Below are positions 38,769-61,079 of a stretch of 64,000 nt of DNA, piece by piece. Numbering within the stretch: position 1 is the first letter of the stretch; the number at the start of each line of letters is the position of its first letter. The notes below the pieces were generated by a model. That model saw only the letters and a list, made by a program, of their open reading frames with translations. It did no database searches and had not been told where the DNA came from. The stretch is from Candidatus Pacearchaeota archaeon (GTDB lineage Archaea; Nanobdellota; Nanobdellia; UBA10117; JAFCGA01). The position numbers were made by a program, and so were the translations under genes. The stretch covers positions 1,396 through 65,395 of the forward strand of contig JAFCGA010000002.1 of assembly GCA_017608345.1 (NCBI GenBank), written 5' to 3'.

Positions 38769-39515
38769 GTGTTTAAATTAAAACTAGATGATCCGAAGAT
38801 TCTGAGCGGAAGCTTGTCGATTATATCAGATTTTATTACTGAGGCAACTTTTGCCATAACTAAAGATAGTATGGGCCTGATAGCAATGGATCCGTCTAAC
38901 ATATCAATGGTTATTTTGAATCTTCTTTCGTCAGCGTTTATTGAATATACAGTTGATTCTGATGAAGAAATAACAATTAATCTAGATATTCTTAATCAGG
39001 CACTGAAGCGTGCAAAATCTGGAGAAATTCTGACGCTGTCCAAAGAGAAGAATCAGCTAGAAATTACTGTAACTGGTAAATCTACGAAGAAATTTCATAT
39101 TCCTCTACTTGAAAAAGAGAGCAGGGACAAGAAAATTCCTTCCCTTGAATTTAATACAGCTCTTGAATTGGACGCTAAAGAATTTAGAGAGTACATAGAT
39201 GATGCAAGCATTGCCGGAGACGCGCTCACATTTAATGCTGTTGGAAATAAATTTAATTTGTCTGCAGGCGATACAGGCAGAAAAGCGAGCATTGAACTGA
39301 AAGAAGGAAGTGATGCTTTAATTAAACTCGAAATCAAAGAGCTTTCTAAATCTATCTATTCTGCAGAGTATTTGAAAAAGATGGCGAAGGCGTCTTCTCT
39401 AGCAGATACAGTTCTTGTTCAGTTCAGCAAAGATTACCCTCTGCGCCTCGATTTCAAAGCACTAAACAAGATGCAGATGAGCTTTATATTAGCACCGAGA
39501 ATTGAAAACAAATAG
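38769..39515 (+). CDS. pcn: DNA polymerase sliding clamp PCNA
   Basis: AMDPSNISMV, F.EY, Y...YL.KM.K, DYPL, FILAPRIE; GTG start (alternative GTG at 38754). Confidence 0.95.
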   Translation: MFKLKLDDPKILSGSLSIISDFITEATFAITKDSMGLIAMDPSNISMVILNLLSSAFIEYTVDSDEEITINLDILNQALKRAKSGEILTLSKEKNQLEITVTGKSTKKFHIPLLEKESRDKKIPSLEFNTALELDAKEFREYIDDASIAGDALTFNAVGNKFNLSAGDTGRKASIELKEGSDALIKLEIKELSKSIYSAEYLKKMAKASSLADTVLVQFSKDYPLRLDFKALNKMQMSFILAPRIENK

Positions 39516-39745
39516 AAACTCCTTTAGAATTTCTATAATTCTTGCAAATATTCATTTGGTTTAGCAAGAACAAATAATAATCACTGCATGATGATAACCA
39601 TCTAACTAAAAACAGCCTACGGAACCGAATAACTTATAAAGGAGTAGTGTACTGTGTTTTTAGGTGAGATTCACCAGCTTTTGGTTAACAGAAGTTGGAT
39701 TGAACCCGCTGGTTTAATTTCACCAACATTGAGAGGAAATAAGAA

Positions 39746-40036
39746 ATGGTAAAAAAGAGAAGAAGAACGACCGGAAGTGTAAGGTACTTTGTACTGCAGT
39801 CTAGTGGAAAAGATACATCCCATGTCTTTACAGGAAGACAGCCACGACAAGCAGCTTTGAAAGCAGCTACTCGAGGATTCACGAGCATTACTCTTCGAGA
39901 GCGCGGAAGAAAGAAGCTTCACATATTCAGTGGTAGCCGAAAGAAAGTTGGCGCTCCAGCAAACGCACCTGCTTGGATGCCAAGATCTATCTGGAAGGCA
40001 AACGTACGAAAGAAGGGTATCAAACACCTTAAGTAA
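39746..40036 (+). CDS. non-histone chromosomal protein MC1
   Basis: FTGRQPRQAALKAA, LRERG.KK.H.F, AP..AP.WMP..I. Confidence 0.93.
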   Translation: MVKKRRRTTGSVRYFVLQSSGKDTSHVFTGRQPRQAALKAATRGFTSITLRERGRKKLHIFSGSRKKVGAPANAPAWMPRSIWKANVRKKGIKHLK

Positions 40037-40060
40037 TTTTTTAGAGAGGGTTTTTCCCTC
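40037..40060. terminator. T-tract plus short hairpin between convergent genes
   Basis: TTTTTT followed by GAGGG-TTTTT-CCCTC. Confidence 0.4.
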
Positions 40061-40065
40061 GATTC

Positions 40066-40815
40066 TTATTTATTTTTTTGTAGTGCAAATACCCAGAATT
40101 TAGAATCTTCTTTTGGTTCTGTGAATTGATAATTATCATATGCTCCGATAAGTTCGAAATTAGTTTGAGCAATAATTTCTTTTAATTCTTCTAGGGTATA
40201 TGTTTTTATTAAGTTCTGTTCTTGGAATTCCCTTTCCTTAATCTTAGCTAATAATGTAACATATACTAAGGAGTGATCTTGCTCATCAAATTTTATAATC
40301 CATTTATATTTTAGTCCATTAACTTTAGTAAACTCAGAACACTTAGCGAATTTCCGTTCGTAGTCAATTCTTGGTTTGACATCGAAAATAAAAATACCCT
40401 CGATATTTAGCTGCTGATAAACTTCATTTAGGAAGCATATAAATTCCTCGCGGCGCAATATATGCGCCGTAGAAAAATCTAAACAAATTGCTGAATCAAA
40501 CTTGTCAGCAAGCACTATATTATAAAAAGATTGGTTAAATAATTTAATATCCAGTTGATGCTTCTTGATTTTCTCTTCTGCAATGTTTAACATATTTTTT
40601 GAGAGGTCTATTCCCGTGACTCTGATTCCGTCTTTTGCGTATAATCTTGCATTATTGCAAGTTCCACATGCTAGATCCAATAATGAATTCGGAATAACGC
40701 CTTGCTGCCGCCAAATTTCTTCTATGAACGCCTTCCATTCGCTATATTTTGAGTATTTCTGTACTTTATCATAAAATTTGCTAAATAGTTCATACTGCTC
40801 GGATGTCTTAATCAT
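40066..40815 (-). CDS. class I SAM-dependent methyltransferase
   Basis: LDLACGT, GIDLS..ML, G.FIFDV. Confidence 0.88.
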   Translation of the reverse strand: MIKTSEQYELFSKFYDKVQKYSKYSEWKAFIEEIWRQQGVIPNSLLDLACGTCNNARLYAKDGIRVTGIDLSKNMLNIAEEKIKKHQLDIKLFNQSFYNIVLADKFDSAICLDFSTAHILRREEFICFLNEVYQQLNIEGIFIFDVKPRIDYERKFAKCSEFTKVNGLKYKWIIKFDEQDHSLVYVTLLAKIKEREFQEQNLIKTYTLEELKEIIAQTNFELIGAYDNYQFTEPKEDSKFWVFALQKNK

Positions 40816-40858
40816 GCTTCGAACAAGTCAAGAAAGGTTTTAAAATATTTATAGAATT

Positions 40859-41023
40859 AAGAGTATTCTCGCCAAGTAGCCATTTTCTTTTCCAGACAGG
40901 AACTAGTTCCTGTTGGCCAAGAGAATCTGCGATTCTCTCTGGCTTTGCGAAAGAAAAGAAACTAGGCATCTAAAGAAAAGAAAGCATATTGTTCGCTTCG
41001 CTCAAGAGTATTCTCGCCAAGTA
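40859..41023. mobile_element. 125-bp palindromic (MITE/REP-like) insertion flanked by 20-bp direct repeats
   Basis: AAGAGTATTCTCGCCAAGTA at 40859-40878 and 41004-41023; hairpin modules at 40892-40916 and 40917-40942. Confidence 0.8.
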
Positions 41024-41331
41024 TGTTTACACTTAGTGCATCTAAAAAATTCTGTCTCGGGCTCGTCAGATGCGCGAGTTTGCAAGGACCAATGGTAGGC
41101 TTTGCTGTTACCGCATTTTTCGCAAGGCTCTTCCAAGCTAATTGTCGCTAGAGTCTGTTCTTCACCTTCTGAAACTCCTTCACCCTTTTGCTCATTAAAC
41201 ATCTTCTCAGAAACTTTGATTCTGGCATGTTTCGTAGAGATTTTTTCATTACAGCGAGGGCATTTTACTACTTGCTTTCCATTCTCTGTTGCCGGTACAA
41301 GTATGCTCCCGCATTTATCACAAAAATTCAT
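41002..41331 (-). CDS. tfs: transcription factor S (TFS, RpoM family)
   Basis: MNFCDKCG..L, CEKCG...AY.W..QTRASDEPET.F..C..C.HTWREY. Confidence 0.93.
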   Translation of the reverse strand: MNFCDKCGSILVPATENGKQVVKCPRCNEKISTKHARIKVSEKMFNEQKGEGVSEGEEQTLATISLEEPCEKCGNSKAYHWSLQTRASDEPETEFFRCTKCKHTWREYS

Positions 41332-41393
41332 TCTGGCTCTTTCCGAGGAACGATTAATATTTAATACTTTCTAATTCAAACCCGCTAAAACTA

Positions 41394-41562
41394 CTTTTTC
41401 TTTCTTGCAACCAAGCGAACTCCGTTCGCGTGGCCAAGAGAAAGCTCGCTTTCTCTCTGGAGAAAGAAAATCTATGCTACCAAGCGGAATGAAATTCCGC
41501 GTGGCCAAGAGAAATCGAAGATTTCTCTCTGGAAAGAAAGAAGCATATTACTCACTGCGCTC
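41394..41562. repeat. modular palindromic element with four CCA...TGG hairpins
   Basis: Hairpins at 41411-41433, 41434-41460, 41480-41504 and 41505-41532; terminus AAGCATATTACTCACTGCGCTC resembles that of the 40.9-kb copy. Confidence 0.85.
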
Positions 41563-41607
41563 GAAAATAAGCAATATTCTTAAAAACGCGCAAAGTAAGT
41601 ATATTCT

Positions 41608-42504
41608 ATGCCAACGAATGTATCTGTTTATTATCTCAAGGCGGAGATGGGCTATCATGAAGCTAAGACTACGCAGGAAAAGCTCAAGGCTCTTAAGCAC
41701 ATGCTTTCTTTATCTCCTGGGCACAAAGGTGCTGAGAAGCTTAGAAAAGATATTAAAGAAAAAATAAGAAAATTAAAATATCTGAAGGAGAAGGAAAGAA
41801 AGCAAGTTAAGCGTTCTGGGCATTCGATAACTGTTAAGAAAGAAGGCGCAGCGCAGATTGTTTTTGTGGGGATTCCTAACTCTGGCAAATCGACTCTGCT
41901 TTCTAAATTATCTGGCAAATCTATTAAAATAGCAGAATATCCCTTTACTACAAAACTACCTGCTGTAAAAATGATTCCTTTTGGGGGAATTAAATTGCAA
42001 GGCGTTGAAATTCCAGCGCTTTACGAAAAAATCGAGGAAAATTCCCGCGGTCGCCAGATGCTAGCTATAATCCGAACCGCAGATTTCATAGTAGTTGTTG
42101 CAAAAGAGCGGAAGTATTTGCAGCCAGCAAAAGATATTCTAGCAGAAGTTGGAATTTACCTCGGAGCTAAAACGAAATACAGAGATGGATTTATCGAACA
42201 TATTCCTTCCCTCGATGTTGTCGGAAAAGACTTTGATAATAAGAACTTGGTAAAGAAGATTTGGCTAAAGCAAGGAAAGATACGCGTTCAGACAAAAGCT
42301 CGCGGACAGAAAGCTGCTAAGAAGCCGGTTATTTTGAAAGAAAGGGGAACAGTTGAGCAGCTAGCTAAAATAGTCCATAAAGATTTTATTAAGAAATTTC
42401 GGTACGCTAAAGTCTGGGGTCCTTCTGCTCACTTTCCGGGCGAGAAAGTTGGCTTTGAGCATAAGTTGAAGGATAGGGACGTTGTTGAGTTGTTTATGAA
42501 ATAA
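41608..42504 (+). CDS. DRG/OBG family GTPase with TGS domain (short, divergent)
   Basis: P.HKG.EK, GIPNSGKSTL, YPFTT, YAKVWGPSA.FPG..VG..H.L.D.DVVE. Confidence 0.88.
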   Translation: MPTNVSVYYLKAEMGYHEAKTTQEKLKALKHMLSLSPGHKGAEKLRKDIKEKIRKLKYLKEKERKQVKRSGHSITVKKEGAAQIVFVGIPNSGKSTLLSKLSGKSIKIAEYPFTTKLPAVKMIPFGGIKLQGVEIPALYEKIEENSRGRQMLAIIRTADFIVVVAKERKYLQPAKDILAEVGIYLGAKTKYRDGFIEHIPSLDVVGKDFDNKNLVKKIWLKQGKIRVQTKARGQKAAKKPVILKERGTVEQLAKIVHKDFIKKFRYAKVWGPSAHFPGEKVGFEHKLKDRDVVELFMK

Positions 42505-43000
42505 GATATTTCTTTAATCGACGGATATGAAAATATTTCGCAGCATCATTTACTTCGAGAATCTTATCAAGTGAAAATGCCTTTGAAAAATCTCGCAGTT
42601 CATTAATCTTATTGCGAGTCTTTCGTTTTTCTTTTATCTTCCCTCTGCGATTGAATCTAGCAATTCGCTGTTCTTTCCAAGCAGCTAGGACTTCTTGTTC
42701 TAATTGTTTCTTTAGATATGCTGATTTGTGAACTCCATATTGATTGAGATGATGTGCTTCGCATAGCGTTACTAAGTTCTTCGAGCTATGAACAAAATCT
42801 CGTTCAAAATATTTTACTTCAGTTGTGCGAGGGATTACGTGATGGACATTAAAATAAAACTCGAGAGATTCGTAACCCGCTACTCGACGAGCGTGTTTAT
42901 TCCTAACGCCGCAAGCTTGACAAGCGTACTTATCTTTTTCTCTTTGAGCATCTCTTATTTCTGCCCAGTTCTTAGGAAGTGGTTCATCTCCATAAGCCAT
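42494..43000 (-). CDS. HNH endonuclease
   Basis: W..IR.....D.Y.CQACG, VHHVIP, NLVTLC..HH. Confidence 0.85.
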   Translation of the reverse strand: MAYGDEPLPKNWAEIRDAQREKDKYACQACGVRNKHARRVAGYESLEFYFNVHHVIPRTTEVKYFERDFVHSSKNLVTLCEAHHLNQYGVHKSAYLKKQLEQEVLAAWKEQRIARFNRRGKIKEKRKTRNKINELRDFSKAFSLDKILEVNDAAKYFHIRRLKKYLIS

Positions 43001-51055: not shown

Positions 51056-51145
51056 TAGCCTTTTAGAAAACCAGAGAGAAATCTTCGATTTCTCTTGGCC
51101 AAGCGGAATGTTATTCCGCTCTGGAGGCTAGCGAAAAGAAGATAA
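51056..51145. repeat. third modular palindromic element, between convergent genes
   Basis: 51071-51098 is the exact reverse complement of 41505-41532; 51099-51124 resembles 41480-41504; enclosed by TAGCCT...AGGCTA. Confidence 0.85.
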
Positions 51146-51499
51146 CTATAATGCCTGGAGTTCTTTAGTTATTTTGTCTATTTTTTCTTCTTTATCTGGA
51201 CCGATTCCCAAACAAGTCATTGTGCCGGGTTTGAGTTCTGTGTGACCAGCGTCGGTGATTAAAGCGGATATTAAGTTAGCTTGCTTAGCTTTTTTATCAA
51301 AGTCTAAAAGCTCTTTTTTGTCAGCAACTCTGAGAACAACTTTCTTAGCGCCTTCTCGTCTCCAAGATTGTAGGAGCTTCTTATCTTTCTTTAGAACTTT
51401 GAGAGCTGATTCTAGTGAAGCGTGACTGCATTGCGCTGCAGTCTTACCTTTAGACATTTTAATATCTGCGCGGATGAGAATTACTTGTTTGAAGTCCAT
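51146..51499 (-). CDS. pth2: peptidyl-tRNA hydrolase Pth2
   Basis: KQV..R.D..MSKGK.AAQ..HA, W...G.KKVVL, DAGHTE..PGT.T..GIGP. Confidence 0.95.
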   Translation of the reverse strand: MDFKQVILIRADIKMSKGKTAAQCSHASLESALKVLKKDKKLLQSWRREGAKKVVLRVADKKELLDFDKKAKQANLISALITDAGHTELKPGTMTCLGIGPDKEEKIDKITKELQAL

Positions 51500-60813: not shown

Positions 60814-60854
60814 GGCAGTCTATTTTGATTCAAGTATAAAATAGTTACTAAAAG

Positions 60855-61079
60855 TAGCGCGGGTTAGATTTGAACTAACGACCTACGGGTCTCTCTAGCC
60901 TTTATTTCGGAGCGAAAGTAAAGTAAAATGCTTCTCTTTCTTTCCCCAGGGTTTCTTTCTCTTCGCAAGAGAAAGAAAGGCTGTATGAGCCCGTCGGGCA
61001 CCTTCTGCAACCAAAGCTGAGCTATCTTCTTTTCGCCAACCTTTTTTTAAAAGGTTGTTCCAGACTGCCCCACCGCGCT
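60855..61079 (-). tRNA. initiator tRNA-Met (CAT) with two introns (61002-61058 in D-loop; 60891-60983 at 37/38)
   Basis: Spliced: AGCGCGG TG GGGC AGTCTGGAGT GCCC G ACGGG CTCATAA CCCGT AGGTC GTTAG TTCAAAT CTAAC CCGCGCT A; A1-U72 pair and three G-C pairs in anticodon stem; BHB-like junctions; CCA not encoded. Confidence 0.92.

Follow-up and report, generated by a model that had tools for sequence, protein, structure and literature searches.

The stretch of DNA that we analysed (the window, 64,000 nucleotides) comes from a Candidatus Pacearchaeota archaeon, whose own genome (G000) comprises 1.05 Mb in 15 contigs and is 88% complete. The locus considered here is the 3' end of tfs. The 109-aa ORF of this gene matched the Pfam family Zn_ribbon_TFIIS (E 2.1e-17) and, weakly, an RPB9-type N-terminal ribbon. 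The end of tfs is present twice, on either side of a short insert that separates it from a downstream gene with methyltransferase domains. The features of the locus are as follows, with strands given where they could be assigned.

40066-40815, minus strand: downstream gene with methyltransferase domains
40846-40853, minus strand: TATA-box-like octamer of the methyltransferase gene, 4 nt past the old tfs stop (from the sequence)
40857-40859, minus strand: putative original tfs stop, TAA; the displaced copy reads TWREYS-TAA
40859-40878, minus strand: distal (displaced) copy of the 20-nt repeat, putatively the original tfs end
40879-41003, no strand assigned: non-coding insert of 125 nt that belongs to the dispersed "family A" repeats (own-genome matches and alignments)
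40879-40891, no strand assigned: arm of the outer stem, pyrimidine-rich on the plus strand, whose terminus at 40879 abuts the displaced gene end (fold)
40892-40916, no strand assigned: hairpin 1 of the double-hairpin module (helices 1 and 2 92–95% paired, three compensatory pairs)
40917-40942, no strand assigned: hairpin 2 of the double-hairpin module (helix 3 94.8% paired, three compensatory pairs)
40949-40967, no strand assigned: arm of the outer stem, purine-rich on the plus strand (folds, and simple-hairpin copies that lack the inner hairpins)
40968-41003, no strand assigned: module C, a purine-rich block, and a truncated module D, which is longer in other copies (alignment of right-arm copies)
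41002-41331, minus strand: working tfs gene, 109 aa, ending TWREYS plus a new TGA (ORF list, Pfam)
41004-41023, minus strand: proximal (working) copy of the 20-nt repeat, consisting of the last six tfs codons and the first base of the stop
41393-41480: second, diverged family-A copy with outer stem and two hairpins, just upstream of tfs (nhmmer E 8.2e-12; a row of alignment A1, see below)
41483-41540: further, partial family-A copy upstream of tfs (nhmmer E 6e-5)

The initial annotation of this DNA had described a perfect 20-bp duplication around a 125-bp element, and this was confirmed. Exactly two copies of the repeat are present in the window, 100% identical and 145 nt apart from start to start, with 125 nt (40879-41003) between them; a search allowing up to two mismatches returned two matches in the window and none in 100 shuffles. 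On the tfs sense strand, the new stop codon TGA (41002-41004) is made up of the last base of the repeat and the first two bases of the insert, and the distal copy reads TWREYS-TAA, both as previously read from the sequence. The claim that the tfs protein was left unchanged also stands, since a KHTWREYS-stop ending is common to many TFS genes of other genomes. At tfs the duplicated core runs directly into the stop codon, such that the stop is the sole difference between the two gene ends and there is no recoded tail.

The displaced tfs end appears to occupy the position of the BRE or upstream promoter region of the methyltransferase gene. Given this position, the spare copy may plausibly be under constraint. 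On the other side of tfs, the family-A copies at 41393-41480 and 41483-41540 lie between tfs and a divergent GTPase gene (41608-42504), and tfs thus has family-A copies on both flanks. No spare tfs 5' end was seen near these two upstream copies.

BLAST of the 167-nt region around the insert gave 38 matches in the own genome at E ≤ 10, and the matches to the insert stopped at query position 147, which corresponds to window position 41003. Two family-A copies in the genome were near full length (81–82% identity over ~112 nt), and an nhmmer profile built from seven copies identified 20 distinct merged loci at E ≤ 1e-3. We aligned 14 own-genome copies of the double hairpin (alignment A1) and evaluated 17 proposed base pairs. 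These pairs were formed in 93.6% of the alignment cells, versus 30–52% when the partners were slid by one to three columns. Six pairs had changes on both sides, and the observed covariation score was reached in none of 500 shuffles. This pairing and covariation indicate that the double-hairpin structure is conserved, at the level of either DNA or RNA. The two hairpins sit in the loop of the outer stem. The statement in the initial annotation that there are no terminal inverted repeats held in so far as none joins the insert termini at 40879 and 41003, but internally the insert is a long imperfect palindrome. Other copies in the genome occur as the simple outer hairpin only, or as the double hairpin only, which suggests that the tfs insert is a nested composite. 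A stand-alone double-hairpin copy without a flanking repeat was observed between two convergent ORFs at window positions 51061-51147. A permissive Rfam search of positions 39000-43000 produced only noise (best E 1.4).

Read in the direction of tfs, modules C and D bring T-rich tracts immediately behind the stop, and the insert as a whole adds a strong hairpin to these tracts. T-rich tracts in this position would suit an archaeal terminator, and the insert probably has the role of a terminator or insulator that separates tfs from the next gene, or is tolerated in that role.

The insert had initially been interpreted as a product of recent mobility. This was not borne out by its relatives in the genome, none of which was more than 86% identical to it over at least 60 nt; the closest family-A pairs were 95% identical, but over the 60-nt hairpin core only. 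A recent burst of the family within the genome is thus not indicated, and the lack of a near-identical source copy would fit better with import than with a local burst. BLAST of the insert against 39 genomes of the order returned the own genome and two weak matches only. A degenerate exact motif for the double hairpin gave 58 single matches in genome_contigs, all with bacterial or unclassified-bacterium titles, and none in viral_contigs. As we estimated that ~35 would be expected by chance, we did not regard the 58 as relatives. The perfect identity of the tfs repeat may reflect one of three things: a recent arrival from outside, homogenisation, or constraint on both copies.

Collection of further copies and measurement of their flanking duplications, as the initial annotation had proposed, gave a divided result: other copies exist and some have flanking duplications, but most family-A copies have no flanking repeat. 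At the 20 profile-defined loci, exact flanking repeats were above chance at tfs only, with the other 19 of the 20 at 9 nt or less (3.2% of 2000 random positions reach at least 10 nt). Flanks were also compared by local alignment in a catalogue of 35 loci, for which the null distribution had its 95th percentile at 9.5 and its 99th at 12.5; three of the 35 scored above the latter. The duplications that this catalogue added to the one at tfs were at the 3' end of aIF2-gamma (27.5), at a tRNA 3' end (17 nt, perfect) and at a gene 5' end (12.0). The exact scan of 20 loci had suggested that the tfs repeat was a one-off, a view overturned by the looser scan and by an unbiased one. The unbiased scan looked for exact repeats of 14 nt or more with a spacing of 40–600 nt and returned 254 pairs, many of them inside tandem-repeat protein genes. 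We inspected 29 of these pairs, and about two dozen proved to be inserts of 73–200 nt between perfect repeats of 14–35 nt. Such gene-end inserts occur about twenty times in the genome and belong to at least two insert families.

To characterize these inserts we used virtual excision of 22 cases, comprising 21 of the 29 inspected pairs and one diverged pair at a gene 5' end on contig C12. All 22 were at a gene terminus or tRNA end and none interrupted a gene body. At least 15 other genes in this genome shared this arrangement, in which a perfect core of 14–35 nt and a small insert with a hairpin accompany a spare end of the gene; the working tail of many of these genes repeats the spare one with synonymous recoding. 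In the 15 gene-3'-end cases ORF length was the same with and without excision, and the proximal and distal tails encoded the same peptide in 12 of the 15. When these cases were pooled, the 86 core codons showed zero differences. From the first mismatch to the stop there were 16 identical codons, 36 synonymous and 5 non-synonymous changes, and 7 stop variants, with 13, 7 and 43 nucleotide differences at the first, second and third codon positions of the tails. The ratio of 36 synonymous to 5 non-synonymous codons could not have arisen if the spare copy had simply decayed neutrally after a duplication. It points to the spare tails having been, or still being, under selection at the protein level, and to the boundary between core and tail being a mosaic junction.

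Three other origins for the recoded tails were tried and set aside. Homology-facilitated illegitimate recombination left unexplained how 0 of 86 core codons could differ beside 48 of 64 changed tail codons, and uniform divergence between donor and recipient failed on the same point. A diversity-generating retroelement was rejected as no reverse transcriptase was found and the differences were not adenine-specific.

Several of the individual loci were informative. Both ends of aIF2-gamma are duplicated around small inserts of two different families (C1:131879-132048 and C1:133170-133360), and after the perfect cores every difference is synonymous. At C12:39756-39930 it is a gene 5' end that is duplicated: a family-A copy is preceded by a diverged orphan start of nine codons and followed directly by the working start of a 476-aa ORF. 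A further 13 gene-3'-end duplications had inserts of 73–186 nt (C1:21610, C1:25600, C1:25922, C1:159015, C10:94147, C13:18423, C14:56076, C14:66501, C2:87914, C2:102678, C4:32470, C6:45314 and C5:24736). Most of those 13 inserts are of a second hairpin family, which shares a short motif with the tRNA introns of the genome.

Family-A modules were likewise found inside unusually large tRNA introns of this genome, and they occur both in tRNA introns at non-canonical positions and between genes. ARAGORN in intron mode identified only 15 tRNA genes in the whole genome, 8 of them with introns of 13–134 nt; without intron mode it called no tRNA in the window. Two large inserts, a family-A copy among them, lie in a tRNA gene at window positions 60854-61079 (C2:62249-62474, minus strand). 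ARAGORN in intron mode called this gene tRNA Arg(CCG) with an odd 134-nt intron, and by eye its anticodon loop seems to resemble CAT, with one intron at the canonical position. At C1:167016-167409 a tRNA(GTC)-like gene has a family-A copy inserted in its T-arm region and is followed by a 199-nt segment that holds another family-A copy. This segment is flanked by perfect copies of the last 17 nt of the tRNA, and the duplicated end resembles a classical T-loop att site.

The initial annotation had looked to relatives for an empty site. Within a set of 41 genomes searched, the own genome was alone in its family and genus, such that close relatives were absent from that set, and a metagenome scan with TFS returned nothing above 65% identity. 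In another genus (g11), however, the analogous site could be compared directly. Among 110 TFS loci, our own included, we searched for a second copy of the gene end up to 400 nt downstream of TFS ends located by pattern. A duplicated tfs end was present in 5 of the 109 other loci. The second end was perfect in L054 (genome G019; 26 nt) and in L125 (a metagenome contig; 25 nt), diverged at synonymous sites in L060 (genome G034), and weaker in L103 and L132. An 18-nt AT-rich match in L118 was left out of this count. In L103 (a metagenome contig) positions 725-900 hold two tandem 56-nt units after the tfs stop, each consisting of a gene tail and a small hairpin, for a total of three tail copies. 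Of the 38 relatives in the same order or class that had a TFS match, 36 carried a single tfs end.

G019 belongs to another family than the genome of the window. Its tfs insert is 71 nt long and, apart from the double hairpin, is collinear with the window insert; it ends in the same terminal motif, beside the distal copy. This likeness is one of architecture and of a single three-sequence alignment, to which BLAST was blind at E ≤ 0.001. Within genus g11 the site is filled in G019, and the other members, G013 and G010, carry a single tfs end. The spacer and gene downstream of tfs in G013 align with what follows the distal copy in G019, which shows the distal copy of G019 to be the original site, the event having added the insert and one repeat copy. 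By analogy, the distal copy at tfs in the window would be the ancestral one. Both G019 repeat copies carry G019-specific alleles (5 of 26 positions differ from G013), which makes the G019 repeat look like a true duplication of resident sequence.

The inserts also have a polarity. In the family-A cases that we examined by eye (tfs, the 3' end of aIF2-gamma, the gene 5' end, which was read on the opposite strand, and G019), the purine-arm terminus abutted the displaced copy and the other side was variable or truncated. The terminal motif at 40879 adjoins the spare copy at aIF2-gamma and at the G019 tfs as well. Overall, 10 of 16 cases had a purine-arm motif no more than 30 nt from the spare copy, one more was a near miss, and the reverse orientation was seen in 1 of 16.

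As had been stated initially, there is no transposase in the window, in the sense that none of six enzyme families searched genome-wide matched inside it. The initial annotation had also anticipated a cognate reverse transcriptase, HUH or nuclease gene. Profile searches of the 88%-complete genome with RVT_1, Y1_Tnp (PF01797), Cas1 and the TnpB-type zinc ribbon gave no match. The genome has two tyrosine recombinases only, of 196 and 408 aa (C2:144637-145131 and C7:3520-4029). Both are outside the window and neither is near an insert of these families; they are candidates for an integration enzyme acting in trans. A single sequence-specific integrase would, however, hardly account for more than 20 different cores. 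A few hundred bases from the gene of the 196-aa recombinase, an 18-nt perfect repeat surrounds 131 AT-rich nt (C2:145368-145534), in which no likeness to the insert families was seen.

Based on these observations, we propose that a small, non-coding, structured mobile element entered the last bases of tfs and that 20 resident nucleotides were duplicated in the process. The gene-side copy would keep tfs intact, with the insert supplying two bases of the new stop, and the far-side copy would be the original gene end, still attached to the promoter of the next gene, which begins 4 nt past the old stop. The one precise terminus of the element, the purine-arm end, would have been joined to the displaced copy, the other side being variable or truncated. 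The tfs insert would then be one of a class, present here and in other small archaeal genomes, in which a perfect core of 14–35 nt and a hairpin insert of 70–200 nt are found at a gene terminus. The recoded but working tails of the sister cases lead us to infer that such units move between diverged lineages, and that conservative recombination, either att-like or guided by short identity, regenerates the gene end through an integration enzyme that would act in trans. Horizontal import and the chemistry of integration are the inferred parts of this proposal. We give an even chance to the reading as a whole, that is, to insertion of a structured element by att-like or short-identity-guided integration, with the gene end regenerated and units exchanged between lineages.

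The initial annotation had favored a move by staggered nicks or target-primed insertion, and a transposition-like or target-primed move within the genome, with nicks ~20 nt apart being filled in and nothing imported, is the alternative that survives best, although we consider it unlikely. At tfs itself a plain long target duplication fits equally well as an att-like event. The tfs repeat is perfect, and both G019 copies carry alleles of their own genome. In addition, repeats of variable length (14–35 nt) accompany inserts with one precise end and one variable or truncated end. Variable duplications of this kind, with one precise and one truncated end, are the pattern of target-primed insertion known from non-LTR elements. 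Such a move is at odds with the sister cases, however, in which perfect cores are followed by tails with 36 synonymous and 5 non-synonymous codons, the working tail being synonymously recoded. It would also lack a source, as no copy is more than 86% identical, and an enzyme, as RVT_1, Y1_Tnp, Cas1 and the TnpB-type ribbon were all without a match in the 88%-complete genome. Furthermore, most copies have no repeat at all.

An old insertion kept by selection is less probable again. Here the working copy would be held by the TFS protein and the spare copy by the promoter of the next gene, and the perfect identity of the repeat would then be uninformative as to recency or mechanism. The position of the spare copy directly upstream of the TATA-like box of the methyltransferase gene is consistent with this, as are the 14–18% divergence of the insert from every paralogue and the collinear insert at the same gene end in G019, a genome of another family. 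Against it, the five synonymous sites of the working copy would be free to drift and none differs, the G019 repeat is perfect despite 5 of 26 positions differing from G013, and the 36 of 38 relatives with a single tfs end would call for many precise losses.

A bulge-helix-bulge (BHB) intron, which the tRNA splicing endonuclease would remove at the RNA level such that the distal end is used in the mature mRNA, is a very improbable explanation. It draws on the presence of family modules inside large tRNA introns of the same genome and on the spare tails being kept at the peptide level, as would be expected if both ends were translated. However, 11 of 15 cases, tfs included, lacked the canonical motif (a 4-bp helix, two 3-nt bulges and at least 2 bp per flank, in register with the repeats), and Rfam gave no match above noise. 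A spliced insert would, moreover, be tolerated in the middle of a gene, whereas 22 of 22 duplicate-flanked inserts were at a gene terminus or tRNA end. An assembly artefact, through the tandem joining of two strain variants or of a collapsed repeat, is scarcely credible even for a 15-contig, 88%-complete metagenome-assembled genome, as the 14–35 nt cores are by our estimate shorter than the usual assembly k-mers, the insert genuinely belongs to a structured family, and the same architecture occurs ~20 times in the genome and at tfs in five independent assemblies.

The insertion with its target duplication is therefore real and is neither an artefact nor a classical MITE event; with a 20-nt repeat and no inverted repeat joining the termini, the initial annotation was right to prefer a long target duplication to the latter. 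A broader idea, possible although we would not count on it, is that DPANN-type archaea harbor a hitherto undescribed class of mobile DNA without enzymes of its own, made up of hairpins related to tRNA introns that home to gene termini between lineages, with a duplicated core of 14–35 nt and a recoded replacement end, and never break the essential genes of an ultra-compact genome. If true, this would provide a route at the DNA level for the movement of archaeal tRNA introns and intergenic hairpins, and the sequence link to tRNA introns would bear on how archaeal introns spread. The recoded tails suggest that diverged DPANN lineages often exchange very short pieces of DNA. Compact archaeal genomes have almost no neutral space, and at tfs the stop is 4 nt from the next promoter. 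Inserting DNA while copying the gene end that it overlaps would explain how repeats colonize such genomes, and the same mechanism would explain orphan ends and mini-ORFs that confuse annotation.

Several known systems share part of this architecture. MITEs and other small bacterial repeats, such as Correia elements and REP/BIME sequences, are structured sequences without coding capacity that occur in many copies, mainly between genes and often close to their ends, and that can include terminator-like hairpins. The tfs insert is like them in being short, non-coding, structured, multi-copy and often near gene ends. It differs from MITEs in having no terminal inverted repeats and no short duplication of fixed length (20 nt here, 14–35 nt in the sister cases), and from REP/RAYT systems in that no Y1 HUH (RAYT, PF01797) match was present in the 88%-complete genome. 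Mobile or transposed tRNA introns are known from the Thermoproteales. The same modules being found in tRNA introns at non-canonical positions and in intergenic DNA is similar to these, but there is no BHB at the boundaries of the tfs insert, which sits after a protein gene, where splicing is not needed.

Prophage e14 and phage 21 at icd of Escherichia coli, and elements with tRNA-targeting integrases, integrate into a gene at its 3' end and supply a replacement for that end. Elements of the icd type are kilobases long, encode their own integrase and have one specific target. The likeness to them is close in that the core overlaps the gene end, the working end is beside the element and the displaced end lies beyond it. 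At tfs the repeat extends over the gene end and the gene is restored, and an integrase of its own is missing from the insert. The replacement end differs at tfs by the stop codon only; the replacement tails of the sister cases differ mostly at synonymous sites, and one case duplicates the last 17 nt of a tRNA. Unlike elements of the icd type, the inserts are 70–200 nt long, encode nothing and have more than 20 targets in one genome.

The remaining comparison is with insertion with long target duplication (ILTD) in bacteria (Nobusato et al. 2000; Furuta, Abe and Kobayashi 2010, PMC2853133). As far as the description in PMC2853133 goes, the inserts are kilobase units of restriction-modification genes, the repeats exceed 30 bp by the authors' criterion, and some repeats overlap a gene 3' end by 2–15 bp. 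No archaeal restriction-modification case was left there after selection for genome comparison. Taking ILTD as described there, the features in common are long direct repeats of variable length, for the analogous insert of G019, a target that is single-copy in the related G013 and G010, and the lack of a transposase in the insert. By contrast, the tfs insert is a 125-nt non-coding hairpin and a member of a repeat family, its 20-nt repeat is below 30 bp (17–48 nt in the sister cases with their tails counted), and the sister cases have recoded tails. In a literature search conducted largely at the level of abstracts, with supplements aside, we found no archaeal account of such gene-end inserts. 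The inserts at tfs and at the other gene ends thus stand apart from both ILTD and icd-type elements in being non-coding, ~100 nt long, members of repeat families, related to tRNA introns and directed at many targets per genome, and they appear to represent a route, hitherto undescribed, by which small mobile DNA enters a compact genome and leaves its genes intact.
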